Of a stretch of 64,000 nucleotides of DNA, positions 30,162 through 54,293 are shown piece after piece (the stretch's first letter is position 1; each line of letters begins with the position of its first letter). The DNA lies in the NCBI GenBank assembly GCA_041648935.1, contig JBAZOA010000001.1:2433-66432 (forward strand). The letters run 5' to 3'. The position numbers and the translations under genes are program-made. The stretch comes from Candidatus Omnitrophota bacterium. GTDB taxonomy: Bacteria > Omnitrophota > Gorgyraeia > Gorgyraeales > Gorgyraeaceae. Below the pieces are notes generated by a model. That model searched no databases. It worked only from the letters and a program-made list of their open reading frames with translations, and had not been told where the DNA came from.

Positions 30162-30175
30162 GTTGCGCGCCCGCC

Positions 30176-33971: not shown

Positions 33972-33972
33972 G

Positions 33973-37664: not shown

Positions 37665-37675
37665 ATATTAGCTTG

Positions 37676-37704
37676 ATTATAATAAATCAAAAAAATATAA
37701 TCAA
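37676..37704 (-). promoter_or_regulatory. Candidate promoter (TTGATT-17-TATAAT) for the 600-aa secreted protein gene
   Basis: Minus strand reads TTGATTatatttttttgatttatTATAAT, ending about 12 nt before the ATG; this would give a near-leaderless transcript. Confidence 0.3.
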
Positions 37705-37761
37705 GAGAAATATTACTTTCTTTGACCGCCAGGCCTAAAGAAACAATTTAATTTAAAAACG

Positions 37762-40700
37762 TTATCTCTCGAAGACCGCCCAGATCTTCTTCTCTGCCAG
37801 GACCTTTCCGTTTTCCAGCACCTGCGCGGTGACAATAATCCTGTAAAGATTGGAATGCACCGTGACAAGATTCGATATCCGCTTGAATCTGTTCTTTTTA
37901 TCCGCGTCGCTTGAGCCGAGCGTGTCCGCGTAAAGCAGGTCTCCTATGCCCAGCTTCAATCCGCCCTTATTACCGAATACCCTGTTATTTACAATGCTAT
38001 TCGCCGTGGCGTCGTCTATGCCGGGCAGGACAGCCAGGATACGGTTGGACGCGGTGTTGACATTCACCCTCCCGTCAAAGGTATTTACGGGATCCAGCCT
38101 TATGAAATCAAAATGCGCGGCGCCTGTCTTTGAGCGATTTTTTATCTTTAACTCCAAGATGCCCGTCCCTATCTCTACGTCCCCGAAAACTATCCCATTA
38201 TCCGGGCCCGGGCTTAACGCCGGGGTCCATTGACTCCAGGTCCCGTCAGCCAGGCGCGCTGAAACGCTGATCTCTTCCTCTTCCTGGCCGAATATCCTCA
38301 GTTTATAATAACCGTCTTCCGCCTCCCATTTCCAGGTTCCTATGGAATCCGGCGAACCGCTTTCGAAATGGTCTGTCAGGGGCGCGGCCCTCTGCACGAT
38401 CTTCCATCCGCTTTCAGATTCAGGGACCATATGTCCTTCCGCCTCAAGCCGTATCCCGAATACCGTCAGCCTGTCCGCTATCTTCGCCACGTCTTCCGTC
38501 GTAATGGTTGACCAGTCATCCAGGCCTATCGGCACGAACCCGGCCTCTCCCACTGAGGAAAAATTCCTGTTCTTCACGTTCACTTCCGTGTCGTAATGCT
38601 CTATTATCTCCTCTCCTATCCTCTCTTTCATGCCCTCGTTATTGTTCGGCAGGCCGGGCGTCCCGCCTTTATCCGCTGCCGAGACATGCCAGTTATCAGG
38701 CGCCCCGTTATTGTTCGAATCGATCACGTGGCTCGGATCTGATTTTTCCAGGCTCTTGCTGTTCGTGACGCGGCCGGAAAAATATTCCTCCTTGTCAACA
38801 ACGTGGCCCATCGGGTCTTTTAAAATAATTATATTCCCGCCCACGGCGTCGGTGTTTGATAATAGGTCCGACTGCGGCGTTATGGTCCTTAAAAAATGCA
38901 GGGCCGCTGACCTCTGCCTGCCCCAGATGGAAACAAAAGATAATCCGTTGCCGCTTATCCCGGACTGAGAATCGTCTTTATCCACGGCGAGCGCCAGGTG
39001 TTCGTGCGGCCCTATGGTTGTCCCCAAAGGGATGGTGGCCGGCCATCCTTCCTTGCCGGGACCCTCCAGACTCCAGCCGCTCAGGTTTACCTCGCGCGGC
39101 GTCAGATTTATAAGCTCCACGTATTCCCCGTCCGGCTCCTGGCTCAATTCCACTGATTTAAAATAAGTCTCCCCGGCCGGGAGATTATTCTGCACGCTGA
39201 CCGTGAGTTTTCCGCCCGAGACGGTCAAGACCTTGCCTCCGCCGAACAAATCCCCGTCCTTCAGATTCTTAGAGTAAGATCCGTTGATCTCGGCGTCTCC
39301 TATGTCGCGTCCGGACGCGCCGCCAAAAAACCTGACATAATATTTCCCGGCGGGTATGTCTTTCCATGTCCACGTCCCTTCGCCCTGTTTTCCGCCGTTC
39401 GGCTTATCATTCCGATAAAAACCATTCTGCCATGCCCAATCACCTCCCGGCTCCTGTCCGCTGAAGGCCTCCCTGGCGATGACCGGTTTTACCATTATCT
39501 CGTTTATCCTTATGCCTTCACAGCCGCGTATCTCGACTGAGCTAAAACCCTGCTGGCCTAAGCGCGGATACAGTTCCAGGTAAGAAAAATAACACGTCTT
39601 ATCCGAATTATTCGTGATCATGAGGTTAAGGATCCTGTCCGCGAAAGACACTGCCCCCATCCTCAATATCTCCCCGTGCGCGACCGAACCCTGAGTCATG
39701 TTGTTTATCGTAATGTCCCCGACCAATTCGTCTTTCACGCCGAATACGCCCACGTAATATTCGCCTTCCGGCACATTCAGCCAGGTCAGTATGAGGTCCT
39801 GGCCTTCCCTGATATCGCTCTCGTAACGCCCGCCGCGCCATATCCAATCCCCGATGGGCCCTTTATTTATCGCGGAAAGCCTGTTATACAGCTTTGTCAC
39901 GACGCTCTGGCTGAAATCTTCGTCACAGGCGTCTATCATGTTCACCGCCTTCTGAAAAGGATCCCTGACGCCGGCATCCTCCAGCGATACCAGCAGAGAA
40001 TTCGCGTCCATGAAATTTATATTATTCCTAAGGCGGCCTTCGACATCCACGTTCCTGTCGGTCGAATAAGTTGTCAGATAAGCGCACAAATCCCTGACCG
40101 TCTCCCTGGGGATAGACCTGATCTTGCTTATCTCGAAAGGGGTCTCGAACGCCCTGTCGTCCCCGGCCGGGGATTTAGGGGAAAATTCGAGCGGCTCGTC
40201 GACGCCTTCGCCGGATTCGTCTATGACCCCGTCCGCGTTATTGTCTATGCCGTCGTAATCCAATATCCTCTGGTTCTGGTTATCATCAACGCCCGCGGCG
40301 CCGGGCTGGCCGTCCGGACCGTATCTGAAATCGGCCACGTCCTCATATATGTCTTCTGAATTGTCCAGCTTGAATGAATCGAAAAATTTCTTGAGGTCCA
40401 GCTCGAAAGGCGCCCAGCCCTCCGTGACCTTTAAAGGCGAGAGATTCTGCTTGTCCGCGATATTGATGTTCAGCAGGCCGGCTTCGTCCTTTACCAGCAC
40501 GGCGTAGCGGCCTATCGTGTCCCCGCCGTCGTCCCGGACGTTTATCCATTTTGAATCAGCCTCGCCGTCGGAATCATTGTCTACCTCATCTCCGACGAAG
40601 ACAGCGCGCCAATTATCCTCAAAACTATCTATGTCCCGCTCATCTTCCTCCAGGATGACCTGGGCGTGAGTGATGCCCGTCTCCGCCAGCTGAGACGCCC

Positions 40701-40845
40701 TGACCGCCTCCAAATAATTAACGGCCGCTTTCAGCTCCAGCCGCATGGTAAACGCGAACGCCACCGCCATTATGCCCGCGACCGCCAACACGCTTATTAC
40801 CAGTATTAAAGCAACTCCTCTATCCTCTTTTATCATTCTCATCAT
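37762..40845 (-). CDS. GspK/PilX-like minor pseudopilin, giant variant with lamin-tail domain and C-terminal ComEA-like helix-hairpin-helix
   Basis: N-terminus RGVALILVISVLAVAGIMAVAFAF...LEAVRASQLAETG matches GspK. LTD motif EYVELINLTPREVNLSGWSL. C-terminal HhH VNVNTASNRILAVLPGIDDATANSIVNNR. The track start is TTG; an ATG about 9 codons in, preceded by GGGTGG, is preferred. Confidence 0.55.
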   Translation of the reverse strand: MMRMIKEDRGVALILVISVLAVAGIMAVAFAFTMRLELKAAVNYLEAVRASQLAETGITHAQVILEEDERDIDSFEDNWRAVFVGDEVDNDSDGEADSKWINVRDDGGDTIGRYAVLVKDEAGLLNINIADKQNLSPLKVTEGWAPFELDLKKFFDSFKLDNSEDIYEDVADFRYGPDGQPGAAGVDDNQNQRILDYDGIDNNADGVIDESGEGVDEPLEFSPKSPAGDDRAFETPFEISKIRSIPRETVRDLCAYLTTYSTDRNVDVEGRLRNNINFMDANSLLVSLEDAGVRDPFQKAVNMIDACDEDFSQSVVTKLYNRLSAINKGPIGDWIWRGGRYESDIREGQDLILTWLNVPEGEYYVGVFGVKDELVGDITINNMTQGSVAHGEILRMGAVSFADRILNLMITNNSDKTCYFSYLELYPRLGQQGFSSVEIRGCEGIRINEIMVKPVIAREAFSGQEPGGDWAWQNGFYRNDKPNGGKQGEGTWTWKDIPAGKYYVRFFGGASGRDIGDAEINGSYSKNLKDGDLFGGGKVLTVSGGKLTVSVQNNLPAGETYFKSVELSQEPDGEYVELINLTPREVNLSGWSLEGPGKEGWPATIPLGTTIGPHEHLALAVDKDDSQSGISGNGLSFVSIWGRQRSAALHFLRTITPQSDLLSNTDAVGGNIIILKDPMGHVVDKEEYFSGRVTNSKSLEKSDPSHVIDSNNNGAPDNWHVSAADKGGTPGLPNNNEGMKERIGEEIIEHYDTEVNVKNRNFSSVGEAGFVPIGLDDWSTITTEDVAKIADRLTVFGIRLEAEGHMVPESESGWKIVQRAAPLTDHFESGSPDSIGTWKWEAEDGYYKLRIFGQEEEEISVSARLADGTWSQWTPALSPGPDNGIVFGDVEIGTGILELKIKNRSKTGAAHFDFIRLDPVNTFDGRVNVNTASNRILAVLPGIDDATANSIVNNRVFGNKGGLKLGIGDLLYADTLGSSDADKKNRFKRISNLVTVHSNLYRIIVTAQVLENGKVLAEKKIWAVFER

Positions 40846-40870
40846 TATACAAACCACCCGTTGAATTTGC

Positions 40871-40911
40871 AAATAAAAACCCCGTCCACCAAAAAACTTC
40901 GGTGGACGGGG
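40871..40911 (-). terminator. Rho-independent terminator (bidirectional-type hairpin)
   Basis: CCCCGTCCACC-aaaaaacttc-GGTGGACGGGG is a perfect 11-bp GC-rich stem followed by UUUUUAUUU on the minus strand, 30 nt downstream of the stop of the 40941..41615 gene. Confidence 0.75.
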
Positions 40912-42532: not shown

Positions 42533-45500
42533 CTACAGGCAGGCTCCGGAAGCCCGGAGCGGATAGAATAAACCCATGAATTCTGTTGTCTCTTGCATGG
42601 CTGATCTTGTCCCGTCCCACAGCCCTCGCGTAAGTTCGTCCTGCCGGACGCCGTCGCTGTAAAATCTTTTTACAATCCCGGATTCCAGCGGATCGCGGCT
42701 ATCCTTATTTATAACCACGACATCCTCATCGCCCAGTTGATTCGCCAGTCTCCGTAAATCGCGCTGACCGTAACCCAGCGTGAACGCGTCTATGACAAAC
42801 CCATCCTCTGTCTCTACCCAATACTGGCCATTATACATGACATGCGCCTTTATCCCGCGCTCCTTGAAAAGCCTTTCTACAATAATTTCCGCGTGCCTCT
42901 TGCACGCGCCGGCGGTACCCTTTAAAAACTCATGCACATCACGCGCCAGGCCATTATACAAAAGCTTTTTCTCATCCAAACTGACTCCGGATATATCAAT
43001 ATCCCCCCAATCCCAAGAAGTCACTCTCGCCCCGTCTTTTTCTAAAGTCAAACACACAACCCTGACCGGATAGTTAATAAACGGCCTGTTTGCCATCGCG
43101 AAAGTGAAGTTAGATTCCGACCCAACCTCATCCCAAAGAATGACTTTTTTACGCGGCCTGTTCAACAATGTTTCCAGATGCATGTCAAAGAAATGACCTA
43201 AATACATGTCATATGACATCTCATTATTAAGGATATGCTCCTTATCTTTATATAACAACTTCAGATAAAGATCATTGTTACGCGAAACAGTGTCATCCCC
43301 ATCCCTGATCCTGCGAAAACCGCCGGCAAAAAGCTGGTCTATTATAACTAAAATCTCTTCCGGATTAAACATGCCCGCATTATATCTATATTTTTCATCA
43401 ACCTTTACGCCGGGATTCATGATGGTTTTCGCGAGAGTACTTTTTCCCCTCACGCCGGCCTCAGAATCAAGCAAGAACAGCACGGGCTTCTCTGATTCGG
43501 ATATATGGCGGCCCGCGTAGTCAAGGGCCTGCTGTGTATCGGAAAATCTGGCTTGTTTTTTCATTTCCTCTATTTTTTGAACCGCATCCCCAAGATACTC
43601 TAACCCAAAAATAAACCCTCTATCAAGAATAAAACGATCCAGAAACTTGCCAAGCATACTATCCATCATACTATTAAAAATAAATTTCTCTCTTCCTAAG
43701 GTATCCCACTCAGGAACAGCCTCGCCGCATCTCTTAATTATATCTCTATATTCATCCTCTGTTATTTGTATCGCGGCGGCGCGCTTTCCCGAACCCGGAA
43801 ACATGAACACCGTATCTCTCGCGAAAAATTTTGAGCGCAGGTCCGGCATTTTATCGGAATATGTCTTCACGAATAACAGCGCCGGCAGATGATTCAATTC
43901 CTGATCGCTCAATTTCCCCCAATCTCTGCCCATCTGCTTGGCCGCGTAAGAAACAACATCTCTAAGCGCCGTATCCAGCATTTCCCTGAAATCAGCGACA
44001 TCAAGTTTTCTGGCGTTTCTGTTTATAATATAAGCGGTCCCGTGAAAATCTGTGGTCAGGGCCCTGTTCAGCTGCGAGCGGGGCAGTCCATGAATACCTA
44101 TATTGGGCAGAGAATCTATAATCTGTCTTGCCACTGTATCGTCCCGCCATATTTCTAACATATTATTGGACGCCAGTGTCCCGCCGGCCGCGGCTAATCC
44201 GGCGTAAGCCTGATTCTTTTTAAATTCAGCGCTCCTTAAAAACATCAGATACGCCTTTACCTTCCCGAGGCTCCTTTTCTGGCCTGTCATCGACCTTACT
44301 ACGCCTGTATACCTGGCCGCCGCGGCATAGTGATAAAAATAAGGAGGATAGTAAGACGAGTTGAAAATCCCGCTATATCGATCCTCAAATTCAGGCCCTG
44401 TGATTTTTTGAAACTTATCCACAACCCACGAATCTGAATGCTGTTTCATCTTAGAGACATCCGGTATCGCCTTCTCGTCTTTATTGCTGTCAAGTATCCC
44501 GTCTACCGCGGTCCTTATGGCCTTCGCGGCAAGCAATATGTTCACCGCGTCTATGCCCGCCACCCCGATTAATAACCCCTTATTGACTGTTATATATCCC
44601 TGCCGGATGCCGTATTCCTCAGAGTATGAGACAAGATTAAGATCGATAAATTCCTGGAACGCCGCCCTGTCTTTTTCGCCGGTAATCATTGAAAACAAAA
44701 GCTCCTTATTGTCGTATAACAAAGTCAAGACATCGTCTTTCGCGATGAAATCCGCCCTCACGTTGGCCATGCCTGTCGTATTTCTAAAATCAAACATGCC
44801 CATCAATTCCGAGAGATACTCTTTTACAGCCCTTTTTATGGAATTCTGATTATCAGAATCCAGTTTTTCCTCGTACGCCACCCCGGCCAGAAACTCCGGT
44901 TCAAGACCATACTGCCCCGCGGCGAACCTTATCGCCTTTGCGCGCGAAGGGGTTAGAAAACCTTTTACTATTTTCATATCTTCTTTGGATAAAAGGCTTT
45001 TCTTTGTCGCTCTGGAGGCGCGGAAATATCTCAGCTGGGCGGCAAAGGCCCTTTCCTCAACATATCTTTCTTTGTGAAGGGGGCTGAGCAAATCCTCCCG
45101 CTCCGCCTTTTCGCGGGAAGAAGGCTCTCCGAGTTCCAGCGCCAATCTCCCTGCGCCCAAAAGCAATAAGAGACCGCCTCCCCTCTTCACCCCCCTGCTA
45201 AGGAACTCCCTTCTTGATATGTTTTTATTGGAGGCTAAAGTTACCGGGCCTTTATCTATTACTAATGGCGTGATCGCCAGAGGCAGCGTTCCGCCCTCAT
45301 TAGATTTAACCTGTTCTAACTGCGACAACAGAGGATCCAATAAATCAAAGGACAGATTTTTCACGTTGGCGGGCAGATCAAACTGCTTGGAGTCCCCGGA
45401 ATTAACAAATGACAGGGCAACCCCTCCTTTTATCTGCGGCATGACTATGCCCGTGACCTTTTTAATCCTGGTTAATGTTTCCTGCACCATCTTAGAGTCT

Positions 45501-48500
45501 TTTATGTCAGAAAAGAATTTTTCTACCGTCTCGGTATGATTCGCGGCATGCGGATGCAAATTCACCAAAGAATGCCCCTGCAGAAGGTCGTCGTCGATTG
45601 TGATCAAAGAGGCTTTATTGAAAATGTCAAGCCCGAGACCCTTGCTGAAAACATCATCCACGTAAGCCAATGAAACGAGTTTTCCGACCTGCCAATTGCC
45701 GGTTATCGGCACAATCCTTTCTATTGTCCTTCCGTCTCCGGACCACCTGCCCTTATTGACGCGCACATAAGTCATCAATTTATAATGCGGGTCGTCAATC
45801 ATGACACCCTTGACGATAAAATCAAAATCAGACCTTTTTATCCCCAGCCTGGTAAAATCTTCCGTATTTTCTATGTATCTCTTGGCCTTTCTTATCCCTT
45901 TCAAAACGTCTTTTCTGTTTATCTCCCCTGGTATCTGAACAAGCGCGGCGCCATGACTGACTATGCCCGCTATGACATTGTCATTGCCGCGCAAGACCTC
46001 CAATAGTTTCTTTAAATTTTTTATCTTTGGCTGTCTGCGCAAATCCCACAGTGTCTCATCTATATCGAACATGACTATGACAGGCTCTTTGATATCTTGC
46101 AGCGTATCGGAGATAGCCTTTAACCTGTTATTATCATCATCTTCTGAAACATTTATCAAAACAGGATAATCTCTTATCCTGCGGGTCATGTCCGCGAAAG
46201 AAGGTTCTACAAAATAATTGACCGCCATTTCCTGTTTGCCTGTCAAATGGTCTCTGGCCAAGGCGACATTTATGATCTCAAGACCTTCCTCAACGTATGG
46301 CGCCAATAAATCCTCTTTCAATATACGGAACACCTTATAACTATTAATCCCGTCGTATAACACAATTTCGTTGGAATCCAGACTGACAGAAAGTTCTTCC
46401 AGGATATTATCCAGCTGCCCCTTGGACACGTTTCTCAGCCTGTATCCTATCTGATGCTTATCTTCGTCTACCCGGCCTATTTTTTTAGCTCCAAGCTCTC
46501 TCTGAAGCCGGATCGTAAAAATAGTCTTGCCTGACATTTGATTGCCGTTAATTAAAATGAGTTTCTTTTTCCCCGGATTTTCCATTACCATGGCTTTGAT
46601 TTTCTTGACTCCCTCATCCAAAGAAAAGCTCCCCGCTTTCTTTTCCATGATACTGGCGTCCAGCCTGCCTTTTAGTATCCCGGCGTTGGAGGCCATGCCG
46701 CCGCTTCCATTCGCGCCATCAAATCTGTCTCTGAAGCTATCTTTGGATTCCGCTGAATTCGCCAGGGGCGCCCTTAATTTCCCGTTCACCTCGCTTATCA
46801 GCTCTTCTATGGGCTTTCGCTTGCCGGACAATAAATATTTATAATTCTCCTCGTCTATCTCCGTGCTGGAATACGGCGTTATGACTACGTATGAATATCC
46901 GTTTTCCTTTAATAACCTTGTTATCCCCTCCGTATGGAACCCCCCTGATATCAGGGCGGCAGTCTTGACTTTGCGTTTTTCTATCTCGCTCGCCGCGTTA
47001 TCGAATAAAACATTGTCCCTTTTGCGCGCGATCTCATAGAAACGCTCAAGCTGAGAAAAATGTCCATCTATCAAGGCGGGATCATAATCCGCCGCCGTCC
47101 GTATATTATATTTGGGCAGGTTTTCCTTTAAGAACCTCTCAAAAAATCCTATCTTGAAATCATCCTTATTTTTAAGATAATAAGTTAATTCCTCGTTTGA
47201 GAGTCTGAGGTTAAAAAATGAATCCAGGATCTTTATGTGCCTCAGGGCCTTCGAGAGAAATCTCTGGTCTGAATTTTCAGACAAGCTGTCTTTTATTTGG
47301 GAGGCCAGATCTTCTATCTCATTAAAGAGCTTTACCGCGTCAAGGGAATTGGCCTTTCTCAGATAAGCCAAAAACCGCCTGACATCCTGAAAATCGCTTA
47401 ATTCGTCCGTTAAATGCCTTTGGGCCAATTCATCCAGATAACCATAAAAAGAATATGGCGAGATCTTTTGGTCCTTGAATAAGGACGCCTTGGCAAGCAA
47501 GGTCTCTGTCTCGCTTTTATTATCCTTCTCTGTCAGGACAGCCTGAAGTCTCGCCAGCAAATCCTGAGAGTCGTTTTTAATTTTTTCCTGGTCTATTGTT
47601 TTTTCAAAATCAAGCGATTCTTTCAGTATCGCTATATTTTTAAAGCCGCTTATATCCATATCCCCGACCAGGGCGAGAAGATAATTCAAATATTCATTCG
47701 TTCCCAGCTTGGCGCGTTCATATTCTTTTTCCTTCGCGTCTATTTTCAGGAGTTCGGAGGAATACATCTTTGGCTTCAACTCTTCCAGCGCCGATTTGAC
47801 CTGGTCAATCACAAACTGGCTATCCGCGGAATATTCCATTATCTTGTTAAACTCCGCGATATTTTCGAAATAAAGCCCCTTATCCTCGATACCCCATATC
47901 GGAAGCTCGGGATATTTTGTTATGGACAGATATTCCTCTCCGGTGAGTTCCCCTGATTCCACAAAGAGCCTGGCTGTCTTTTCACGGACCTCTGGGTCAG
48001 GAAAACCAGCCACGGAACTCGTATCAACCTCGCCCTCGGCCCCCTCTGAACACACGAGGCCCAGATCATAATCTTTTATCAAAATCTCCAAAATACCGGC
48101 CAGGTTAAAACTCGCTTCCGGGTTAGTGTGCAGGTCCTGGATATGGACCACTAACGGCTTTCTCGCCTTTTGGTCCGCGCCTTGGGCCTCATACACCTCA
48201 ATTACCTTTCCTGTCGTTTCCGGTATATATATGCTAGATATATCTTTGAAAGAAGATAACTTTACGCTATGAGATATATCTTTATCGTAAACGCTGGATT
48301 TGGAGGCATGGGCCTTGCCCGACAGGATATCCGTCTTTTTCTGAATCTCCGATTCTCTTTGCTCCTGTATCTTTTTGTAATCAGGTCTTTTGCCCTTGAA
48401 TATACTCCTGTCGCTTGGCTCAGGATAGACCGCGCCAGTGGCCAAAAATACCTGGACCAACAATAAAGATATTATTTTTATTGATATTCTTTTTTGAGGG

Positions 48501-48649
48501 TTCAGCATGGTTAAAAAAATCCCGGGCACGTCCCTTATTAGTATGTGGTCTCTGCCATGGGAGAGAGGCCATATTAAGAGGCGATGCCCGAGAAATATCC
48601 TTTTTAACAAAAAGGCCAGGTCTCCTTCTACCTGGCTATTGAGACCCAT
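42533..48649 (-). CDS. Giant multidomain protein (2038 aa) with two P-loop kinase-like motifs, a HAD-like motif and an internal TM segment
   Basis: Uninterrupted 6.1 kb ORF. Motifs include a signal-like MLNPQKRISIKIISLLLVQVFLATGAV, LILINGNQMSGKT and VLFLLDSEAGVRGKSTLAKTI (AAA_33/zeta-toxin-like P-loops), VIVMFDIDETLWD (HAD motif I), and an internal SRREFLSRG-GGGLLLLLGAG TM segment. Confidence 0.5.
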   Translation of the reverse strand: MGLNSQVEGDLAFLLKRIFLGHRLLIWPLSHGRDHILIRDVPGIFLTMLNPQKRISIKIISLLLVQVFLATGAVYPEPSDRSIFKGKRPDYKKIQEQRESEIQKKTDILSGKAHASKSSVYDKDISHSVKLSSFKDISSIYIPETTGKVIEVYEAQGADQKARKPLVVHIQDLHTNPEASFNLAGILEILIKDYDLGLVCSEGAEGEVDTSSVAGFPDPEVREKTARLFVESGELTGEEYLSITKYPELPIWGIEDKGLYFENIAEFNKIMEYSADSQFVIDQVKSALEELKPKMYSSELLKIDAKEKEYERAKLGTNEYLNYLLALVGDMDISGFKNIAILKESLDFEKTIDQEKIKNDSQDLLARLQAVLTEKDNKSETETLLAKASLFKDQKISPYSFYGYLDELAQRHLTDELSDFQDVRRFLAYLRKANSLDAVKLFNEIEDLASQIKDSLSENSDQRFLSKALRHIKILDSFFNLRLSNEELTYYLKNKDDFKIGFFERFLKENLPKYNIRTAADYDPALIDGHFSQLERFYEIARKRDNVLFDNAASEIEKRKVKTAALISGGFHTEGITRLLKENGYSYVVITPYSSTEIDEENYKYLLSGKRKPIEELISEVNGKLRAPLANSAESKDSFRDRFDGANGSGGMASNAGILKGRLDASIMEKKAGSFSLDEGVKKIKAMVMENPGKKKLILINGNQMSGKTIFTIRLQRELGAKKIGRVDEDKHQIGYRLRNVSKGQLDNILEELSVSLDSNEIVLYDGINSYKVFRILKEDLLAPYVEEGLEIINVALARDHLTGKQEMAVNYFVEPSFADMTRRIRDYPVLINVSEDDDNNRLKAISDTLQDIKEPVIVMFDIDETLWDLRRQPKIKNLKKLLEVLRGNDNVIAGIVSHGAALVQIPGEINRKDVLKGIRKAKRYIENTEDFTRLGIKRSDFDFIVKGVMIDDPHYKLMTYVRVNKGRWSGDGRTIERIVPITGNWQVGKLVSLAYVDDVFSKGLGLDIFNKASLITIDDDLLQGHSLVNLHPHAANHTETVEKFFSDIKDSKMVQETLTRIKKVTGIVMPQIKGGVALSFVNSGDSKQFDLPANVKNLSFDLLDPLLSQLEQVKSNEGGTLPLAITPLVIDKGPVTLASNKNISRREFLSRGVKRGGGLLLLLGAGRLALELGEPSSREKAEREDLLSPLHKERYVEERAFAAQLRYFRASRATKKSLLSKEDMKIVKGFLTPSRAKAIRFAAGQYGLEPEFLAGVAYEEKLDSDNQNSIKRAVKEYLSELMGMFDFRNTTGMANVRADFIAKDDVLTLLYDNKELLFSMITGEKDRAAFQEFIDLNLVSYSEEYGIRQGYITVNKGLLIGVAGIDAVNILLAAKAIRTAVDGILDSNKDEKAIPDVSKMKQHSDSWVVDKFQKITGPEFEDRYSGIFNSSYYPPYFYHYAAAARYTGVVRSMTGQKRSLGKVKAYLMFLRSAEFKKNQAYAGLAAAGGTLASNNMLEIWRDDTVARQIIDSLPNIGIHGLPRSQLNRALTTDFHGTAYIINRNARKLDVADFREMLDTALRDVVSYAAKQMGRDWGKLSDQELNHLPALLFVKTYSDKMPDLRSKFFARDTVFMFPGSGKRAAAIQITEDEYRDIIKRCGEAVPEWDTLGREKFIFNSMMDSMLGKFLDRFILDRGFIFGLEYLGDAVQKIEEMKKQARFSDTQQALDYAGRHISESEKPVLFLLDSEAGVRGKSTLAKTIMNPGVKVDEKYRYNAGMFNPEEILVIIDQLFAGGFRRIRDGDDTVSRNNDLYLKLLYKDKEHILNNEMSYDMYLGHFFDMHLETLLNRPRKKVILWDEVGSESNFTFAMANRPFINYPVRVVCLTLEKDGARVTSWDWGDIDISGVSLDEKKLLYNGLARDVHEFLKGTAGACKRHAEIIVERLFKERGIKAHVMYNGQYWVETEDGFVIDAFTLGYGQRDLRRLANQLGDEDVVVINKDSRDPLESGIVKRFYSDGVRQDELTRGLWDGTRSAMQETTEFMGLFYPLRASGACL

Positions 48650-48697
48650 GGCTACTTAAAATCAAATTTTGATTAACTCTTTTATAAACTCTATCAT

Positions 48698-48725
48698 AAG
48701 TATACCACAAAACTTAATTTTGTCA
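48698..48725 (-). promoter_or_regulatory. Sigma-70-like promoter (TTGACA-16-TATACT) for the giant gene
   Basis: Minus strand reads TTGACAaaattaagttttgtggTATACT, about 45 nt upstream of the annotated start. Confidence 0.45.
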
Positions 48726-48751
48726 AGGTCTCCTCCAATCTTTGTTGCGTG

Positions 48752-49303
48752 TCAAGTTGTTGGCAGGGTTATGGTCTTTTGGGATTGATAACGGCCTTTG
48801 CGGTCAGCGTAGGTGACCTGACATTGCTCATTCGATTGAAAAAATACCACTTGAGCCATGCCCTCATTGGCGTAAAGCTTTACAGCGGAAGGAGATGTAT
48901 TGCTTATCTCCATTGTGATATATCCATCCCAGGAAGGTTCCAGGGGCGTGACATTCACGACCACGCCTATCCTGGCATAAGTGCTCTTACCCGAGCAGAG
49001 CGCCAGGACATCGCTGGGAATTTTAAAGTACTCGAACGATCTCGCTAAAACAAATGAGTTTGGGGGAATGACGCAGATGGGGCCCTTAAAATCCTCAAAT
49101 AAATCGGATCTCGCGTTCTTGGGATCCAGGATATCGCCGGAAGAACCCTTGTATATCTTGAATTCATCGGCTATGCGTATGTCATAACCGTAACTCGAAA
49201 GGCCGAAAGAGATATTCCCTTTTTTTATTTGATCGGGTTCGAACGGCTTTATCATTTCATATTCCAAGGCCATTCTTTTGATCCAGGCATCGGGTTTCAG
49301 CAT
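48752..49303 (-). CDS. dcd: dCTP deaminase
   Basis: 183 aa with the Dcd fold ([27 protein letters not shown]). Confidence 0.9.
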
Positions 49304-51591
49304 TTAGAATATCCGCACGAACGACAGACCACGCAGCCCTCCTCGTGCCTCAGGGCGGCTCCGCAATCAGGACAAACCCCGACCACGTTACCCAGCTTAT
49401 CCTCTATCATTGTGTGAGGGGAATGATGCTCCAGCTCTTCTTCTTTATGATGCATCTTGCCGTTGCCGAGCCTCAATTCAAGGACCCTGGCGATGGCGTC
49501 GGAACAGGAGAAGATCCTCCCCGTCTTTTCCCAAGAGGGGGACGGGCAGCGTATGCCTCTTAACTGCTCCACGATCTTGCTGTTCTCGACCCCTGAACGA
49601 AGCGCCAATGACACCAGACGGCCTATCGCCTCCAGCTGACTGGCGGCGCAGCCTCCGGCCTTGCCCATCTGGATAAAGACCTCGAAAGGCAGATTATTAT
49701 CGTCCACGTTTATGGTGATATAAAGGTTCCCGCATCCTGTCGCGACCTTTGTCGTGGTGCCCTTGGTGACTATCGGCCTGGGTCTCGGGGCGACGCCTTT
49801 TTTATCCTTTGTCTCAGCGTTGGCGCCGGATGGGTTTTGTTTCTTGCTGTCGATATTCAACACTTGCTCCTCCCTGCTTTTATCTCTATATATGGTCACT
49901 CCCTTGCATCCCAATTTAAAGGCCAGCATGTAAACCTCTCTCACCTCTTCCTTTGTCGCGTCGTGCGGAAAATTCACGGTCTTGGAAACCGCGTTATCCG
50001 TGTATTTCTGAAACGCCGCCTGCATCCTTATATGCCATAAAGGGGCAATGTCGTGGGATGTGACAAAGATCTTCCTGTATCTCTCCGGCACCTCGGAAAT
50101 CTCTCTCACGGAACCTTTTTCCGCGACGGTCTCCATAAGCTCCCTTGAATAAAACCCCTCTTTCTTCGCTATCTCCTCGAATAACGGGTTGGCCTCCACG
50201 AGCTTATCGTTATCCATCACATTCCTGTAATAGGACAGGGCGAATATGGGCTCTATGCCGCTCGACGTATTTGATATGATCGAGATGGTCCCCGTGGGCG
50301 CTATCGTGGTCAAGGTAGCGTTCCTGATCTTTTCCGCGCCGTCTTTACCGAACACGCTTTGGCTGAAAGACGAGAACTCGCCTTTCATGCCGGCCAGCTC
50401 GATTGATTTTTTTCTCGCCTCCTCATTTATAAAACCCATCAATCTCTCGGCCAGCTTCACGGCCTCTTCGCTGTTATACGACATGTCCAATTTTATCAGC
50501 ATGTCGGCCCAGCCCATGATGCCCAGGCCTATCTTTCTATTCTTCTTTGTCATCTCCTCTATCTGATCCAGCGGAAACCTGTTCATGTCAATGACGTTAT
50601 CCAGAAAATGCACCCCCAGACGCGTCAGGCGTTTTAATTTTTCCCAATCGACTTCCTTGCCGCCGTTTTCGGACACGACCTTGGAAAGATTTATCGAACC
50701 GAGATTACAGCTCTCAAAAGGCAACAGCGGCTGCTCTCCGCATGGATTGGTGCTTTCTATGTTCCCCAGCGAAGGCGTGGGATTGTCCTTGTTTATCCTG
50801 TCGATAAACACTATGCCCGGCTCCCCGTTCTTCCAGGCCATGTCCACGATCAGGTCAAACACCTCTTTTGCCCTGAGCCTCCTGACCTCCTTGTGATCGT
50901 GCGGGTCTATCAAGGAATACTCCGAATCCTCTATCACCTTGTTCATAAAATCTTCGGTGATGGCGATGGAGATATTAAAATTGGTTATCTCCTTGTCGCT
51001 CTCCTTGCATTTGATGAATTCCAGGATATCCGGATGGTCCACTCTCAGGATGCCCATGTTCGCGCCCCTGCGGGTACCTCCCTGTTTCACGGCCTGCGTG
51101 GCTGAATTAAACACCTTCATGAAAGACACCGGACCGCTGGAAACGCCTCCTGTCGAGCGCACGACGCTGTTTTTCGGTCTAAGGCGGGAAAAATTGAAAC
51201 CCGTGCCGCCGCCTGATTTATGGATCATGGCGGTATTCTTTATCGCCTCGAAAATCGATTCCATCGAATCTTCCACCGGAAGGACAAAACACGCGGACAG
51301 CTGACCCAGGTCCTTGCCGGCGTTCATCAGGGTAGGGCTGTTAGGCATGAACTCAAAATTAGATATCGCGTCATAAAACTCGTTCTCGACCTCTTTTATT
51401 TCCTTGTCGGTGGCGCCGTATAATCCGTCAGCGGACGCTATGTATCTCGCGACCCTCCTGCACATCTCCTCCGGCGTTTCTATCACCTTTCCCTGCTCAT
51501 CCTTAGTAAGATAACGTTTTTCAAGTACCTTCAAACAATTTTCCGTGATGTCTAATTTTTTCGCGCTGTTCACTCCTGCCCGCATCTTCAC
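49297..51591 (-). CDS. nrdJ: Class II (adenosylcobalamin-dependent) ribonucleotide reductase with C-terminal zinc ribbon
   Basis: NPCGEQPL active-site motif, B12-RNR architecture, 764 aa, C-terminal CPDCG...CVVCRSCG. Confidence 0.85.
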
Positions 51592-51626
51592 CCCCTTAAA
51601 TTTTTTAAAATTTTAATACAAAAACA

Positions 51627-51654
51627 AGTATATCACTTGAAAAATCAGTGTCAA
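51627..51654 (-). promoter_or_regulatory. Sigma-70-like promoter (TTGACA-16-TATACT) for nrdJ-dcd
   Basis: Minus strand reads TTGACActgatttttcaagtgaTATACT, about 35 nt upstream of the AAGGGGGTG SD and ATG. Confidence 0.5.
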
Positions 51655-51717
51655 GTTAAAAATACAACCTATTGATATTTTTTCAGCTAAATCGTCTATA
51701 TATAGTGGTTCGACAGG

Positions 51718-52473
51718 TTAAATTATTTCCACGCCGGCCTTGGGAAGCCAGCCCCTCAGGTCTTTTGAAAGATCTATCTCATACCAGCCCTGGCTTTCTT
51801 TTACCACGCGGACCTCGGTGCCTTCGTGCAGCGTAAACTGTAAAAGATAATCGTCTTTTGGGCCGCTTCTGACGTCTATTTTTTCGGATACGATGACCGC
51901 CTTCATGGCGGCATTCTCTCCCTGTATCTTCGCGGCCAGAAAAACTAAAAAGACAAGTGACATGAAACCGGTTACCCAAACATTATAAAAAATTATCCGC
52001 CTTTTGGAAACAAAAAAGATAAAAAATATTAAAAGCAGCGCCGTGGCCAGATAAAAAACAAAACATGCCGCGGTCAGTTCTTCTATGCTCATCCTGTCGT
52101 ACAAAAAAAACGCGGCGTTTAAAATAAAGCCCCTGTCCGAGATGTTTATCTTGTCTACGGCCATCTCCCGCGCGAGTTTCAGATTCAGGCGCGCGTCCCT
52201 GTCTCTGGGCGCCAGGCGAAGCGCCCTTTCGTAATTCGCGATTGCCATGCCGATCTTTTTTGATTTAAAGAAACTGTTGCCGAGATTGTAAAATACCTCG
52301 GGTGAGACCCTGTCCATCCTGACAAGCGTCTCGTAAAGCGATATCGCCTTGGCGTAATCGCCATTCTCGTAACTAAGATTCGCCTCGGCGTAAATCTCTT
52401 CCGGCGCCTGGGCGGAAGACGCGCCGGCCAAACCAAAAAACATGACGATTAGAAATAACAGCGCCTTTCTCAT
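51718..52473 (-). CDS. batE: BatE-like TPR plus SH3b membrane protein
   Basis: Signal peptide, TPR repeats, TM segments and a C-terminal SH3b motif (VRSGPKDDYLLQFTLHEGTEVRVVKESQGWYEI...GWLP). Confidence 0.65.
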   Translation of the reverse strand: MRKALLFLIVMFFGLAGASSAQAPEEIYAEANLSYENGDYAKAISLYETLVRMDRVSPEVFYNLGNSFFKSKKIGMAIANYERALRLAPRDRDARLNLKLAREMAVDKINISDRGFILNAAFFLYDRMSIEELTAACFVFYLATALLLIFFIFFVSKRRIIFYNVWVTGFMSLVFLVFLAAKIQGENAAMKAVIVSEKIDVRSGPKDDYLLQFTLHEGTEVRVVKESQGWYEIDLSKDLRGWLPKAGVEII

Positions 52474-54293
52474 GATCTTATTCTCTCCAATCCCATTACC
52501 GCGTATTCCGCCTCACGTAACGTCCTGGTCATGTCTTCTTTGGTAAATTTTACCGAAGCGAATCTCGCCATGTCGCAGACATCGAACAGGTCTTTTACTT
52601 TATCTATCACCGCTTTATCCACGCCCCTCTTTATCAATTTTTCCTCGAGGGCGTCTTTCGTGATAGACGCGTGCGGGATGTTCAATTTGTCGCCTATGTA
52701 CTCGATCACGGCTTTATATATCTCGGCGTAAAAATCCTTCACGAGCTCCTTCCGCAGGAGGTTTTCCGCGCGTTTCAATCTTTTTGACGCCGCGCCGCGC
52801 GCGCGTATCGAACGCGCGTATCCCATGTCAGTCCTTACGCGCGCCCTATGCAGTTCATACGCGTAAAGCGACGCTAAAATAAGGATAAGCGCGAGATTCA
52901 AAGACAAGAATATCTTATTTCTATACAAGAATGCCCCCTTGGGCCTGAACCTCGGGGGCGAAGTTTTTATATAGGCGATGTCTTTCTTCAGTATCTCCAC
53001 CTCTTCCTTCGTAAACCCGGGCAACCGGGTCTCAACGCGTTCCTCCGTTGACTTTGTCGCGGTTATCGTTATCGGGGAAAGCCGCTTGTTGACATATTCT
53101 TTTGATTCGACATCGAAATAATTGTACTCCAGCGGCCCTATCGTGAAAGTACCCGGCCTTTTCGGTATGATCACCTTCTCAAAGATCTTCTCTCCCTGCA
53201 CCGTGTAATTTGATTTGGAAATATTCTCGGAACTTGCCGAATCGTATATCTTCGCGTCCGCGATCTCCGGTATCGCGGGCGCGGATATCGTCTTTATATT
53301 CCCCTTCCCGCTGATCTTCATCCTCAACGTAACCGGCTGATTCTCCTCAACCGCGGTCTTATCCACGTTTACGGATACCTCGAGCTTGCCGACATCGCCT
53401 TTAAAATTAACGGGTTTATTTTCTTCGGGCAGCGGTATTATCTCCACGGTTATGGGATCCGTTGTAAGCACTATGGGCTTACCCCTCCTGAACATGCTGA
53501 AAGGATCGTTGTCAAATATACCGAACGGGCTTCTTGAAAACATCCTTTCCAGGTCCTCAACGCTTGCCTCCAGCCGCGCGGGGCCTATCGTAAATTCTCC
53601 ATGGGAGGTGCCGAACAGGGCTGTCTTGATCTCCGTCACGAGATATCTTCTGCCGTTTATGACCTTATAATATTTTTTCTGGGGAGGCATGTCCTCTGTC
53701 CAGAACCCCGTGGTGGAAGGCGCGCTATACACCGGATTCTCAAACAGGTCCACTGATTGATAAAAAGCGAAGGTCAGGGTTATCTGCTCATTCACGTACG
53801 CCCTGAGTTTATCCACGTATGTCTCTATGAAAAGTTCCTTGCCTTGCTGTCTGGCGTCAATCCCATGATCCGGCTCTTGAGGCTCCTGCGCCGGGAGCGG
53901 CGTGGACTGAGAACCGCCTTTTGGCAGCACCTTTATTATTATGGGGTCCGATGAATATGTCCGGCCTTTATAGTCTATGGTAAAAGGACCCAGCGCGAAA
54001 TCCCCTGTTTCGTTCGGGACCAGCATGTAGGTAAAAGATACGGAGCTTGAAACCTGCCCGTTAATTATAGAAATATTCTGAGACCTGCCGCTTGAATAAG
54101 AAGTAAAGCCTTTCAAATCCGGAATGGAAGGCTGCGGGATGTTAGAGACATTGCCGGTGACTGTTATGACCAGGGCCACCTGCTCGTCCAGGAAAATCTC
54201 ATTTTTATCCGCCTCAGCGGTAATAAAAATATCCTCGGCGTAAGATACGCTGGATATAAAAAATAATAAAATTATAAATATGAATTTTTTCAT
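52470..54293 (-). CDS. batD: BatD-like oxygen-tolerance family protein
   Basis: 607 aa with signal peptide, large periplasmic beta-rich region and C-terminal TM; position within the bat operon. Confidence 0.6.
   Translation of the reverse strand: MKKFIFIILLFFISSVSYAEDIFITAEADKNEIFLDEQVALVITVTGNVSNIPQPSIPDLKGFTSYSSGRSQNISIINGQVSSSVSFTYMLVPNETGDFALGPFTIDYKGRTYSSDPIIIKVLPKGGSQSTPLPAQEPQEPDHGIDARQQGKELFIETYVDKLRAYVNEQITLTFAFYQSVDLFENPVYSAPSTTGFWTEDMPPQKKYYKVINGRRYLVTEIKTALFGTSHGEFTIGPARLEASVEDLERMFSRSPFGIFDNDPFSMFRRGKPIVLTTDPITVEIIPLPEENKPVNFKGDVGKLEVSVNVDKTAVEENQPVTLRMKISGKGNIKTISAPAIPEIADAKIYDSASSENISKSNYTVQGEKIFEKVIIPKRPGTFTIGPLEYNYFDVESKEYVNKRLSPITITATKSTEERVETRLPGFTKEEVEILKKDIAYIKTSPPRFRPKGAFLYRNKIFLSLNLALILILASLYAYELHRARVRTDMGYARSIRARGAASKRLKRAENLLRKELVKDFYAEIYKAVIEYIGDKLNIPHASITKDALEEKLIKRGVDKAVIDKVKDLFDVCDMARFASVKFTKEDMTRTLREAEYAVMGLERIRS

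Follow-up and report, generated by a model that had tools for sequence, protein, structure and literature searches.

A probable lineage-specific family of modular giant proteins in Omnitrophota, with a conserved head, junction motifs and exchangeable enzyme cassettes

The giant "multi-enzyme metabolic cluster" proteins of Omnitrophota and Archaeovorins have been described in two preprints (West-Roberts et al. 2023, 10.1101/2023.11.21.568195; 2026, 10.64898/2026.06.07.730766). They consist of unrelated enzyme domains tiled behind a domain-less N-terminal signal/transmembrane region; proposals connect them with the degradation of cell walls and with possible cleavage after translation. Separately, internal twin-arginine signals are known from dual Sec/Tat-inserted proteins, including the actinobacterial Rieske protein Sco2149, Sco3746 and others (Keller 2012; Tooke 2017). 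Here, we describe a gene from an uncultured bacterium of the same phylum with a similarly tiled product, located in a 64-kb window (the whole stretch of 64,000 nucleotides that was analysed). It is very likely a genuine single gene of a lineage-specific modular family, in which an N-terminal helix is followed by an optional ~550-aa Tiki-type head, an LRxPL motif and exchangeable enzyme cassettes separated by LASN motifs. With the same confidence, cassettes are exchanged between paralogues and even between positional orthologues.

An ORF check of the window found a stop-free frame of 2038 codons at 42533-48649 on the minus strand, as are all features below; a preliminary description of the region had reported this uninterrupted frame correctly, with the strand unstated. 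Its product is 100% identical to the NCBI entry [quoted passage not shown], and the identical record occurs in NCBI, JGI and ENA, on a 157.7-kb host contig. The annotated start codon at 48649 falls inside a conserved leader and is probably false. Comparison of related sequences indicates that the true start is very probably M48 (ATG at 48508), giving a revised coding sequence at 42533..48508 that encodes 1991 aa plus the stop, because at least eight homologues start exactly at this position, gene callers place the start there in syntenic loci, and codons 1-47 overlap the leader, which is conserved at the DNA level and whose indels in other genomes disrupt that reading frame. Residue numbers throughout follow the 2038-codon ORF.

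The gene had been credited with its own TTGACA-16-TATACT promoter, and this is indeed the best promoter-like site in the region: a sigma-70-like sequence (48699..48726) with an extended −10 TG and matches at 11/12 positions. Its −10 block, TGnTGTATACTTAT, is unchanged across three syntenic genomes. Between this site and M48, a structured 5′ leader RNA (48509..48692) is indicated by long invariant DNA blocks common to five genomes and by three stem pairs in which both sides are altered and pairing is retained. The leader comprises a hairpin (48652-48615) followed by a U-run, and then a long stem-loop (about 48594-48519) containing the invariant 17-mer GGCCTCTCTCCCATGGC at 48570-48554. A comparison with Rfam gave no family match for the leader.

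A signal-like helix had been proposed for the N terminus. There is a hydrophobic helix at aa 55-75 (48425..48487), evident from hydropathy and modelled as a helix by AF2, but it is N-terminal only if translation starts at M48. It follows the basic segment MLNPQKRISIK and resembles a Sec-type signal or anchor, and the same helix type opens nearly all family members, including head-less ones. The head follows (aa 76-624; 46778..48424) and appears to have a Tiki/erythromycin-esterase/ChaN-type alpha/beta core interrupted by a ~290-aa helical insertion. This head, absent from the preliminary description, is the only widely conserved part of the protein: it is detectable in 53 giant proteins, which have aa 48-634 in common, and is 50-60% identical in ~37. 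Its candidate catalytic residues (D172, H174, E202, R544 and H572) form an intact DxH..E..R..H constellation, and the D/H/E/R/GGxH columns are invariant among family members. In the head, H174 and E202 are 28 residues apart, as are R544 and H572; the corresponding spacings are 28 (H3902 to E3930) and 29 (R4001 to H4030) in RRSP, and 28 (H85 to E113) in Bcr135 (PMC6254334).

The likeness to the Tiki superfamily (Tiki/TraB/PrgY, EreA/B/C, Bcr135/136, ChaN and RRSP) covers the alpha/beta core and the pattern [E/D]xH ... E (+28) ... R ... H (+28/29); appended domains are also typical of the superfamily. PF04187 (ChaN, Tiki superfamily) is the sole recurrent Pfam match for the head, found for 5/25 head members (best E 7.2e-6). 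The AF2 model of the head (pLDDT 80) has Ere-family proteins as its top fold matches: erythromycin-esterase-family structures make up four of the top ten Foldseek matches, which are led by EreC, 3b55 and 2rad and are statistically weak (E about 0.04; TM 0.19-0.26). By contrast with the superfamily, the core of the head is split by the helical insertion, the 2His/2Glu motif has Asp as its first acidic residue, the sequence and fold scores of the head are under normal significance thresholds, and fusion to kilobases of exchangeable cargo is without earlier description.

Synteny with cargo replacement is directly observed at this locus. In three genomes, the flanking proteins are 64-84% identical over their full length, and the giant genes are 56-65% identical over their first ~590-640 residues. 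Past the head, there is no similarity between the giant protein of the window and that of locus L003, or between those of L002 and L003; between the window protein and that of L002, similarity is confined to the C-terminal module and a weak match in ModC. The downstream gene, a histidine phosphatase, is 82-84% identical regardless of cargo, and the neighbourhood of the giant gene includes a type IV pilus and secretin cluster. Housekeeping metabolic enzymes, for example PGK, enolase, aldolase, PGM, UGPase and PGI, make up most of the cargo across the family. Exchange of cargo between orthologues had escaped the preliminary description.

Two short motifs mark the junctions, and neither is in the preliminary description. 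The first, LR[VAPKIM]P[LM], occurs as LRAPL at the head-to-cargo junction (aa 625-629; 46763..46777), in a low-pLDDT segment of the AF2 model. Each of 39 proteins has a single LRxPL, against a total expectation of 1.7, always just past the head or, in head-less proteins, past the N-terminal helix; standalone single-cassette proteins have the same N-terminal helix and LRVPL. The second motif, LASN, occurs at aa 1138-1141 (45227..45238; 26 bits against the motif profile), where homology blocks begin, and at aa 1492-1495 (44165..44176; 21 bits), where they stop. LASN is ten-fold enriched (39 observed versus 3.9 ± 2.0 expected), is present in only 21/94 proteins examined, and falls between Pfam domains in P0008, P0010 and P0014. 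LASN sites coincide with homology-block starts in 20/39 cases (3.3 ± 1.6 for random sites) and with block ends in 17/39 (3.6 ± 1.7), a coincidence that may be inflated since the protein sample was gathered by similarity to the giant protein. In cassettes with a Tat-type signal and a muramidase-like domain, LASN lies 3-4 residues upstream of S/T-RR. Ahead of the first P-loop module, MASN (aa 652-655, in MASNAGIL; 46685..46696) is tentatively read from the sequence as a LASN variant; it resembles LASNAGL contexts and scores below the profile threshold.

The cargo of this copy, as part of the same well-supported reading, very likely comprises a P-loop NTPase and a HAD-type phosphatase; a Tat-type signal and a Tse3-like muramidase; and an unassigned region, a P-loop NTPase and a papain-like domain with Gln in place of the catalytic His. 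P-loop module 1 (aa 663-799; 46253..46663) has GNQMSGKT (702-709) as its Walker A motif and IVLYDG (762-767) as a Walker B-like one; the homologues of this module, P0074 and P0081, have the C-terminal module as well. P-loop module 2 (aa 1677-1885; 42995..43621) contains AGVRGKST (aa 1731-1738), with Walker A ending in GKST (K1736) and Walker B VILWDE (D1840). The two P-loops noted previously are genuine Walker A motifs; they are paired with hhhhD/E Walker B motifs and kept in homologues. The further assignment to AAA_33, zeta-toxin or chloramphenicol-phosphotransferase families found no support in searches (KTI12, E 0.012; Der GTPase, 0.0027; guanylate kinase, 0.02; zeta toxin, 0.34), the likeness being at the Walker A level only.

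In the HAD-type phosphatase-like module (aa 803-1132; 45254..46243), the identification of FDIDETLWD as HAD motif I holds at the motif level. Motif I (D862-x-D864-x-T866, within FDIDETL at aa 861-867), motif II (S898, in GIVSHG), the invariant K990 and motif IV (D1019-D1021) are kept in seven homologues, and the best PDB profile matches, although weak, are HAD enzymes aligned at motif I. The function-unassigned region (aa 1496-1676; 43622..44164) has only one weak homologue, P0093. The C-terminal papain-like module (aa 1886-2038; 42536..42994; AF2 pLDDT 88.6), a further element missing from the earlier account, has C1916 at a helix N terminus, an invariant D1954, and Q1942 at the position of the homologues' His; its top Foldseek matches (Ceg10, MepS and an entry named "bacterial peptidase") are all non-significant (E of at least 1).

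The middle cassette opens with a predicted internal twin-arginine signal (aa 1145-1177; 45119..45217) in which n-, h- and c-regions are all present: SRREFLSRG, a short Gly/Leu/Ala h-region and small residues (GAG|R), followed by GEPS. SRREFLSRG and GGGLLLLLGAG had both been recognized, but the former lies at aa 1145-1153, not around residue 1180. Their twin-arginine appearance is consistent with matches of Pfam TAT_signal to 4/16 homologous segments (best E 8.1e-5) and of the Rieske Tat signal model to 2/16, both ModC segments (7.9e-5); the protein's own segment has no TAT_signal match at E <= 1. The h-regions of such cassettes are short (about 13-16 residues), Ala/Gly-rich and moderately hydrophobic, with basic residues on the N-terminal side and AxA-like small residues after them. 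The segment had been considered a possible relic of gene fusion; instead, it is a conserved cassette start, internal in about 13 other giant proteins, and none of the homologues is split at this position. No Tat machinery gene was detected within the 64-kb window, an uninformative absence.

Behind the signal, a domain not previously noted (aa 1178-1490; 44180..45118) resembles Tse3, the Pseudomonas aeruginosa T6SS muramidase with an SLT/goose-lysozyme-like fold. Its profile matches six Tse3 PDB sequences (E about 7e-5) across the Glu250 region, and PF22115 matches one member of the cassette group. The catalytic Glu250 of motif 1 corresponds to the candidate E1261 in LEPEFLAGVAYEE; in motif 2 (G1293..N1296) the Gly is retained, and a second weak stretch aligns with a buried helix. 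Unlike in Tse3, Gln280 of motif 2 is replaced by Asn, and the module stands behind a Tat-type signal rather than being T6SS-delivered, with no evident immunity gene.

How might such a protein function? Our tentative preference is for a membrane-tethered precursor (polyprotein) that would be cut at the LRxPL and LASN junctions, in disordered linkers. The candidate protease would be the Tiki-type head, acting in cis, and in trans on head-less members that retain LRxPL. Cuts at LASN-1138 and LASN-1492 would free a ~350-aa pre-muramidase with an ordinary Tat signal (...NKNISRREFL...) at its new N terminus. This product could be exported in folded form to attack the peptidoglycan of the own cell, a host or prey; the kinase-like and phosphatase-like parts would remain on the cytoplasmic side. 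Several points weigh against cleavage. The Tiki superfamily also holds esterases (Ere) and the haem-binding ChaN, such that the head is not necessarily a protease; its structural match is weak, and its first acidic residue is Asp. LASN could instead cap cassettes structurally or result from the way they recombine, the P-loop and HAD modules would end up extracellular if the signal anchor were N-in, and the C-terminal domain lacks the expected His.

It is rather less probable that the protein is an uncut, membrane-embedded multi-enzyme, with the N-terminal helix inserted by Sec/YidC, the internal twin-arginine segment, a transmembrane helix of low hydrophobicity, passed on to Tat so as to place the muramidase-like domain outside the membrane, and LASN and LRxPL as mere linker or cassette-cap sequences. 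Internal Tat signals after Sec-inserted helices are established experimentally (PMC5449189, PMC3471235), and in those proteins, as here, the N terminus is distant from a consensus Tat motif, which stands directly before a low-hydrophobicity stretch and a globular domain expected outside the membrane. The Rieske-model matches to ModC segments and the basic residues preceding the h-region are also in keeping with this, as are published DeepTMHMM predictions that larger Omnitrophota giants are mostly membrane-anchored. However, in the dual-targeted proteins known so far, the RR motif comes after two or four Sec helices, an even number, and the Tat segment is the last transmembrane helix, whereas here one helix is detectable, followed by ~1100 soluble-type residues before the motif and ~550 after it, making the topology inconsistent. 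The h-region resembles a cleavable signal peptide, not an anchor; P-loop module 2 would lie outside the cell, without ATP; and the conservation of the junction motifs, with LRVPL retained in head-less proteins, would be left unexplained.

Still less likely is a secreted polymorphic effector against host or prey, in which a conserved N-terminal trafficking region would carry exchangeable enzymatic "warheads", including cell-wall hydrolases, as in Rhs, CdiA and MARTX toxins. A constant head combined with changing cargo at orthologous positions fits this pattern, the Tse3-like and papain/NlpC-P60-like modules are reminiscent of Tse3 and Tse1, which T6SS delivers against cell walls, the Tiki-fold enzyme RRSP is a MARTX effector, Omnitrophota have been proposed as predators or episymbionts with cell-wall-degrading giant proteins, and the type IV pilus and secretin cluster is nearby. 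Against it, the locus lacks a variable immunity gene, the downstream phosphatase being constant; housekeeping enzymes rather than toxins dominate the family cargo; searches with toxin and defence models gave no match; and RHS, VENN, RTX and CPD elements were not found. The preliminary suggestion of a "toxin, effector or surface enzyme" is possible. That the long frame is an artefact, with an assembly chimera or sequencing frameshift joining neighbouring genes, is hardly credible: the source is a short-read metagenome assembly (k141 contig) and ~1400 aa are almost without close homologues, but the same sequence stands in three repositories on a long contig with ordinary, collinear flanks, independently assembled related genomes have one ORF (1848 or 1619 aa) at the same position, every cassette, including that started by RRxFL, is internal to many other long ORFs from unrelated samples, and the junctions have a specific conserved motif and no frame breaks.

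In MARTX toxins, a built-in cysteine protease domain cuts between the effector domains. Like these and viral-type polyproteins, the giant protein combines several independent enzymatic modules and a built-in hydrolase domain in one ORF, with short conserved sequences in the disordered stretches that link the modules; RRSP, a component of MARTX toxins, has the Tiki fold. It differs in having neither RTX repeats nor a CPD domain, in its mostly housekeeping cargo, and in that its cleavage is inferred. Its junction motifs provide a concrete handle to test the cutting of giant proteins into separate enzymes. Overall, the protein is a variant form of the known Omnitrophota multi-enzyme giants. Those proteins are 10,000 to 147,000 aa long, compared to ~2,000 aa here, and have C39 and S8 peptidase domains proposed as their processing enzymes; the preprints make no mention of a Tiki-type head, LASN/LRxPL, a Tse3-like module or cargo-swapped orthologous loci.

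The minus strand carries, from 48649 down to 42533, a 6.1-kb frame that is free of stops for 2038 codons, as the preliminary description stated. Its translation is 100% identical to an NCBI protein, [quoted passage not shown], and the identical protein, on a 157.7-kb contig, is also present in JGI and ENA records. The promoter proposed for the gene (TTGACA-16-TATACT, with an extended -10 TG, at 48726..48699 on the minus strand) is the top of 20 consensus matches in the region. The peptides quoted in the preliminary description are all found in the translation, i.e., a hydrophobic helix (aa 55-75; residues are numbered by the 2038-codon frame), GNQMSGKT (aa 702-709), FDIDETL (aa 861-867), GKST (aa 1735-1738), and SRREFLSRG, the last at aa 1145-1153 rather than near residue ~1180.

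Translation most likely begins downstream of the annotated start. Homologues start at M48 (MLNPQKR...), and gene callers pick the equivalent Met at syntenic loci; the corresponding ATG is at 48508, with ~190 nt separating it from the promoter. Indels of at least 17 nt in other genomes disrupt the annotated frame of codons 1-47, and the annotated M1 (48649) lies within one arm of a conserved leader hairpin. Because the homologues start at M48, the leader contains invariant DNA blocks, and the indels break the frame, we read the locus as a structured leader followed by a protein that is most likely 1991 aa long; the 2038-aa annotation of WC569_00245 probably begins 47 codons too early (48508-48649, minus strand). 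The leader itself (48509-48692, minus strand) occupies the interval from the promoter to the probable start codon and contains long invariant DNA blocks common to genomes whose proteins are just 60-84% identical. RNAalifold, applied to five genomes, predicts two elements: a hairpin followed by a U-run (48652-48606, minus strand), and a longer stem-loop immediately 5' of the start codon, in which three pairs are altered on both sides. The second element contains the invariant 17-mer GGCCTCTCTCCCATGGC. Counterparts of the leader are present at four related loci (L002:5395-5650, L003:7690-8000, L005:2728-3000, and L010:2750-2985). An Rfam search of the window and the leader returned no family. 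One possibility is that the leader acts as a new attenuator or riboswitch-like element; another is that the promoter and terminator delimit a small RNA. In UBA10183 (loci L005 and L006, on two contigs), only one of the two Tiki-head paralogues has the leader RNA motif.

The neighbours of the giant gene are ordinary bacterial chromosomal genes, on the same strand throughout: a Bat/VWA operon and genes for a class II ribonucleotide reductase, a dCTP deaminase, a histidine phosphatase, a mechanosensitive-channel-like protein, an LTD protein, an Ig-like protein, and type IV pili. Directly downstream of the giant gene (minus strand, 35862-40872 and ~27655-35496) are a 1036-aa lamin-tail-domain/HhH protein, a 600-aa Ig-like protein, a MerR regulator, and the type IV pilus cluster (PilM/N and a secretin), and this whole block is collinear in related genomes. 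A tRNA scan found none. The G+C content of the giant gene (42533-48508) is below that of its neighbours, with modules at 0.43-0.48 (head, 0.437; second P-loop module, 0.431) and a single exception, the C-terminal module, at 0.516. In 2-kb windows, the downstream flank has a G+C content of 0.50-0.54 and the immediately upstream flank (48001-54000) just 0.48-0.49.

The closest relatives of the giant protein, P0002 and P0005, are encoded at loci whose gene order matches that of the window across 14 or more genes. The proteins on either side share 64-84% identity along their full length, and the giant proteins are 56-65% identical over their first ~590-640 residues. Beyond that point there is no similarity, except in P0002, which still has the C-terminal module (53%) and, weakly, the cassette that we term ModC (26%). 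Because the head and the flanks are similar and the remainder is unrelated, we conclude that the cargo has been replaced within an orthologous gene. Such wholesale exchange of cargo amid collinear neighbours is an unusual form of bacterial protein evolution outside toxin systems. The cargo of other family members includes PGK, enolase, aldolase, PGM, UGPase, PGI, PFK, glutamate dehydrogenase, CMP kinase, and methyltransferases, among others. A word-indexed search with aa 635-2038 gave one cargo relative, and an exhaustive HMMER search gave the rest. In one member, P0010 (3214 aa), Enolase_C (1639-1936) lies ahead of Enolase_N (2065-2173), and the catalytic domain of glutamate dehydrogenase (618-774) lies ahead of its N-terminal dimerisation domain (909-1008); this reversed domain order suggests that enzyme cassettes in family members are circularly permuted.

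No scan of the whole protein, whether against Pfam, NCBIfam, PDB sequences, or PADLOC, gave a match above threshold, so the parts of the giant protein were delimited from its homologues. The head (aa 48-634) is common to ~53 other long proteins of 1200-3400 aa, and all of those with a source name are from Omnitrophota. A scan of species-representative genomes with a single-sequence query found the head in Omnitrophota MAGs only, all close relatives, with one genome having it twice. In a 25-sequence alignment, H174, E202, Y538, R544, G569, G570, and H572 are invariant, and D172 nearly so. These residues match the Tiki pattern, i.e., D172-x-H174, E202 (+28), R544, and H572 (+28), with Asp instead of Glu as the first acidic residue. 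The reference spacing (ExH, E ~28 on, R, and H ~29 on) comes from RRSP and Bcr135, with which the head shares the [E/D]xH ... E ... R ... H constellation at equal spacing (PMC6254334). Pfam ChaN (PF04187), of the Tiki superfamily, matches 5 of 25 head members (best E 7.2e-6) and has no match to the giant protein itself. An AF2 model of the head (pLDDT 80) has a beta-alpha core broken by a ~290-aa helical insertion, and the PDB entries closest to it, all weak matches (E ~0.04), are the erythromycin esterases EreC, 3b55, and 2rad. We assign the head as putatively Tiki-type by its catalytic motif, with the model being suggestive only of a Tiki fold. Some genomes have paralogous heads: Candidatus Omnitrophota UBA10183 (L005/L006) carries at least two Tiki-head genes per genome, and two Tiki-head paralogues (P0026 and P0035) are encoded on one 107,731-bp contig. 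The same order of dcd, leader, and giant gene, with a head 58% identical to that described here, occurs at L010 (CAZMID010000006.1), a contig labelled "uncultured Planctomycetia bacterium"; the bin may have been misclassified and belong to Omnitrophota.

Two short motifs mark the junctions between the parts. The first, LR[VAPKIM]P[LM], which we refer to as LRxPL, occurs exactly once per protein in 39 proteins, with 1.7 expected in total by chance, in a protein set collected by similarity to the giant protein. It is positioned directly behind the head (LRAPL, aa 625-629, in the giant protein) or, in relatives that have no head, ~30-48 residues from the N-terminus. These head-less proteins start with the same type of helix, and they include standalone HAD, second P-loop, and C-terminal cassettes. 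The second motif, LASN, was observed 39 times in the similarity-selected set, versus 3.9 +/- 2.0 expected, within an extended context of [K/S]-LASN-[E..]-[G/N]-[I/L/M]. LASN falls between Pfam domains in three test proteins; of its 39 sites, 20 coincide with the start of a homology block (random, 3.3 +/- 1.6) and 17 with the end of one (random, 3.6 +/- 1.7). The giant protein has LASN twice, at 1138 and 1492, exactly flanking ModC, and a variant, MASN, precedes its first P-loop module. We also considered whether a 12-nt DNA identity at LASN sites drives recombination; this idea was dropped, with three sites in the gene (GCC/GCG TCC AAT/AAC) being too few. If the motifs are mere cassette caps, they would still provide a practical rule for dividing giants into units that can be folded separately in structure prediction.

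ModC (aa 1138-1491) opens with an S/T-RR-x-F-L-K n-region, a short Ala/Gly-rich h-region, and a small-residue c-region, followed by GEPS. The giant protein has SRREFLS, GGGLLLLLGAG, and GAG|R at these positions, and its homologues have RRxFLK with AFA|G or AGA|V. Pfam TAT_signal matches 4 of 16 homologous segments (8.1e-5), a Rieske Tat-signal model matches 2 of 16, and TAT_signal gave no match at E <= 1 to the giant protein's own segment. The twin-arginine signal had been described as lying in the middle of the protein and as a possible relic of gene fusion. The motif, the h- and c-regions, and the internal position (aa 1145 of 2038) hold; a one-off relic does not fit, since the signal is likewise internal, not N-terminal, in all ~13 other giants that have ModC. 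Cleavage at the adjacent LASN would give the signal an N-terminal position. A Met preceding RR in homologues was rejected as a relic start codon: it occupies the hydrophobic +6 position (I/L/M) of the LASN motif, where the giant protein has Ile (codon ATA). No TatA-like motif was found within the 64-kb window, which is part of the genome only. The body of ModC (aa 1178-1490), used as a profile, matches six PDB sequences of Tse3, a T6SS muramidase of Pseudomonas aeruginosa, with E values of 6.6e-5 to 7.9e-5, and PF22115 matches one ModC member (E 0.0035). The matched region comprises the catalytic Glu250 region and motif 2 of Tse3; Glu250 aligns with E1261, and GLGQ of motif 2 aligns with G-M-A-N (Gln280 to Asn). 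By these motifs, aa 1178-1490 is a putative Tse3-like muramidase. A candidate transmembrane helix at aa 1359-1378 was discarded, as it aligns with a buried helix of Tse3. ModC is followed by a region with no assigned function (aa 1496-1676).

The remaining modules of the giant protein are recognisable mainly by their motifs. P-loop module 1 (aa 663-799) has a Walker A motif, GNQMSGKT, and a Walker B-like IVLYDG; P-loop module 2 (aa 1677-1885) has Walker A GKST (K1736) and Walker B VILWDE (D1840). Thus, both P-loops of the preliminary description stand, but their likeness to AAA_33, zeta-toxin, or chloramphenicol phosphotransferase does not extend beyond Walker A: no Pfam or NCBIfam match to these families was found for the protein, and the only matches, to KTI12 (E 0.012), Der GTPase (0.0027), guanylate kinase (0.02), and zeta toxin (0.34), cover the Walker A region only. 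The similarity of module 2 to PDB entries is restricted to the P-loop, and a PDB search with module 1 gave nothing useful. The HAD phosphatase assignment is borne out at the level of motifs: the module (aa 803-1132) has motif I (D862/D864/T866), motif II (S898), K990, and motif IV (D1019-D1021), all kept in seven sequences, with S898 replaced by Thr in homologues and D1020 and K990 invariant. Its database matches are weak: Acid_PPase in Pfam (E 0.17) and, in a profile search of PDB, phosphomannomutase 7myv (E 0.13) and HAD protein GK1056 (E 0.55), aligned at motif I. The C-terminal module (aa 1886-2038) is common to P0002, P0056, and several standalone proteins of 200-230 aa. In its AF2 model (pLDDT 88.6), a conserved Cys (C1916) starts a helix and the next conserved polar residues lie on the following strands, with D1954 on the third, a predicted arrangement that is papain-like. 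The Cys/His/Asp pattern is incomplete: where 10 of 13 homologues have the expected His, the giant protein has Q1942 and P0002 likewise has Gln, and the papain-like domain may for this reason be inactive here. A fold search with this module gave Ceg10, MepS (NlpC/P60), and an entry named simply "bacterial peptidase", all non-significant (E >= 1); profile and Pfam searches with the module gave nothing, nor did Pfam searches with short standalone homologues of the cargo modules. P-loop module 1 has just two homologues, P0074 and P0081, both of which also bear the C-terminal module; the P-loop and papain-like modules lie at aa 78-212 and 1061-1204 in P0074 and at aa 56-181 and 367-490 in P0081. 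This co-occurrence hints that the two modules cooperate.

The architecture is shown directly; for the mechanism, which is inferred, we tentatively favour a processed precursor. A single ORF would encode a membrane-anchored head, a Tiki-type protease, followed by interchangeable enzyme cassettes that each start with LASN, and cutting at LRxPL and LASN would yield independent enzymes. Cleavage would also free an N-terminus, such that the internal RRxFL becomes a working Tat signal for the muramidase. Head-less members would be processed in trans, and a previously undescribed structured leader RNA would control the locus. Five considerations lead us to favour processing: (i) the short conserved motifs sit in unrelated, apparently disordered linkers; (ii) the catalytic residues of the conserved hydrolase head are intact, and site-specific proteases (Tiki and RRSP) are among the characterised relatives of this head; (iii) head-less relatives keep LRxPL, suggesting recognition in trans; (iv) a full Tat signal lies 3-4 residues past LASN and would be in its normal N-terminal place only once cut; and (v) the cargo enzymes normally act as free soluble proteins. 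The complete scheme, a bacterial polyprotein system with all of these parts, is put forward tentatively, and we would sooner doubt it than rely on it.

The main rival is that the protein stays uncut and is inserted by Sec and Tat jointly, as in actinobacterial Rieske proteins; however, the topology is inconsistent with the single detectable upstream helix, and an ATP-binding module would be left outside the cell. A polymorphic effector or toxin of the Rhs or CdiA type would also combine a constant head with variable cargo, but this explanation is weakened by the absence of a co-varying immunity gene: the downstream histidine phosphatase is 82-84% identical in three genomes with differing cargo, and the toxin reading was dropped because of this invariance. 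Moreover, the cargo is mostly housekeeping, and no toxin or defence model matches. An assembly artefact, which could join separate genes into one long frame, is very unlikely, because there are independent assemblies and every cassette also lies internally in many other proteins.

The favoured reading, a processed precursor, bears on a question raised for the giant proteins of Omnitrophota in general. Whether these act as single molecules or are cut is acknowledged as open, with no cleavage points known (West-Roberts et al.). The family described here makes the question directly testable: a member of ~2,000 aa is small enough for expression; the family supplies two motifs, LASN and LRxPL, as candidate cut sites or junctions and a candidate built-in hydrolase with mutable residues (D172, H174, E202, R544, and H572); and the Tat-type signal, which should function only after cleavage, provides a built-in read-out. 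Two preprints on Omnitrophota giant proteins make no mention of LASN or LRxPL motifs, linkers, a Tiki domain, or a muramidase, and do not discuss Tat; a literature search found no paper connecting Omnitrophota with Tiki. The giants of that literature (>= 10,000 aa or > 30,000 aa) have the same kind of architecture as the protein studied here, which, at 1991-2038 aa, falls below those size classes. Multi-enzyme giant proteins of Omnitrophota are known in outline, and what appears to be new is the shared N-terminal leader with its Tiki-type head, the two junction motifs, the replacement of cargo at an orthologous locus, the cassette combining a Tat-type signal with a Tse3-like domain, and the conserved leader RNA.
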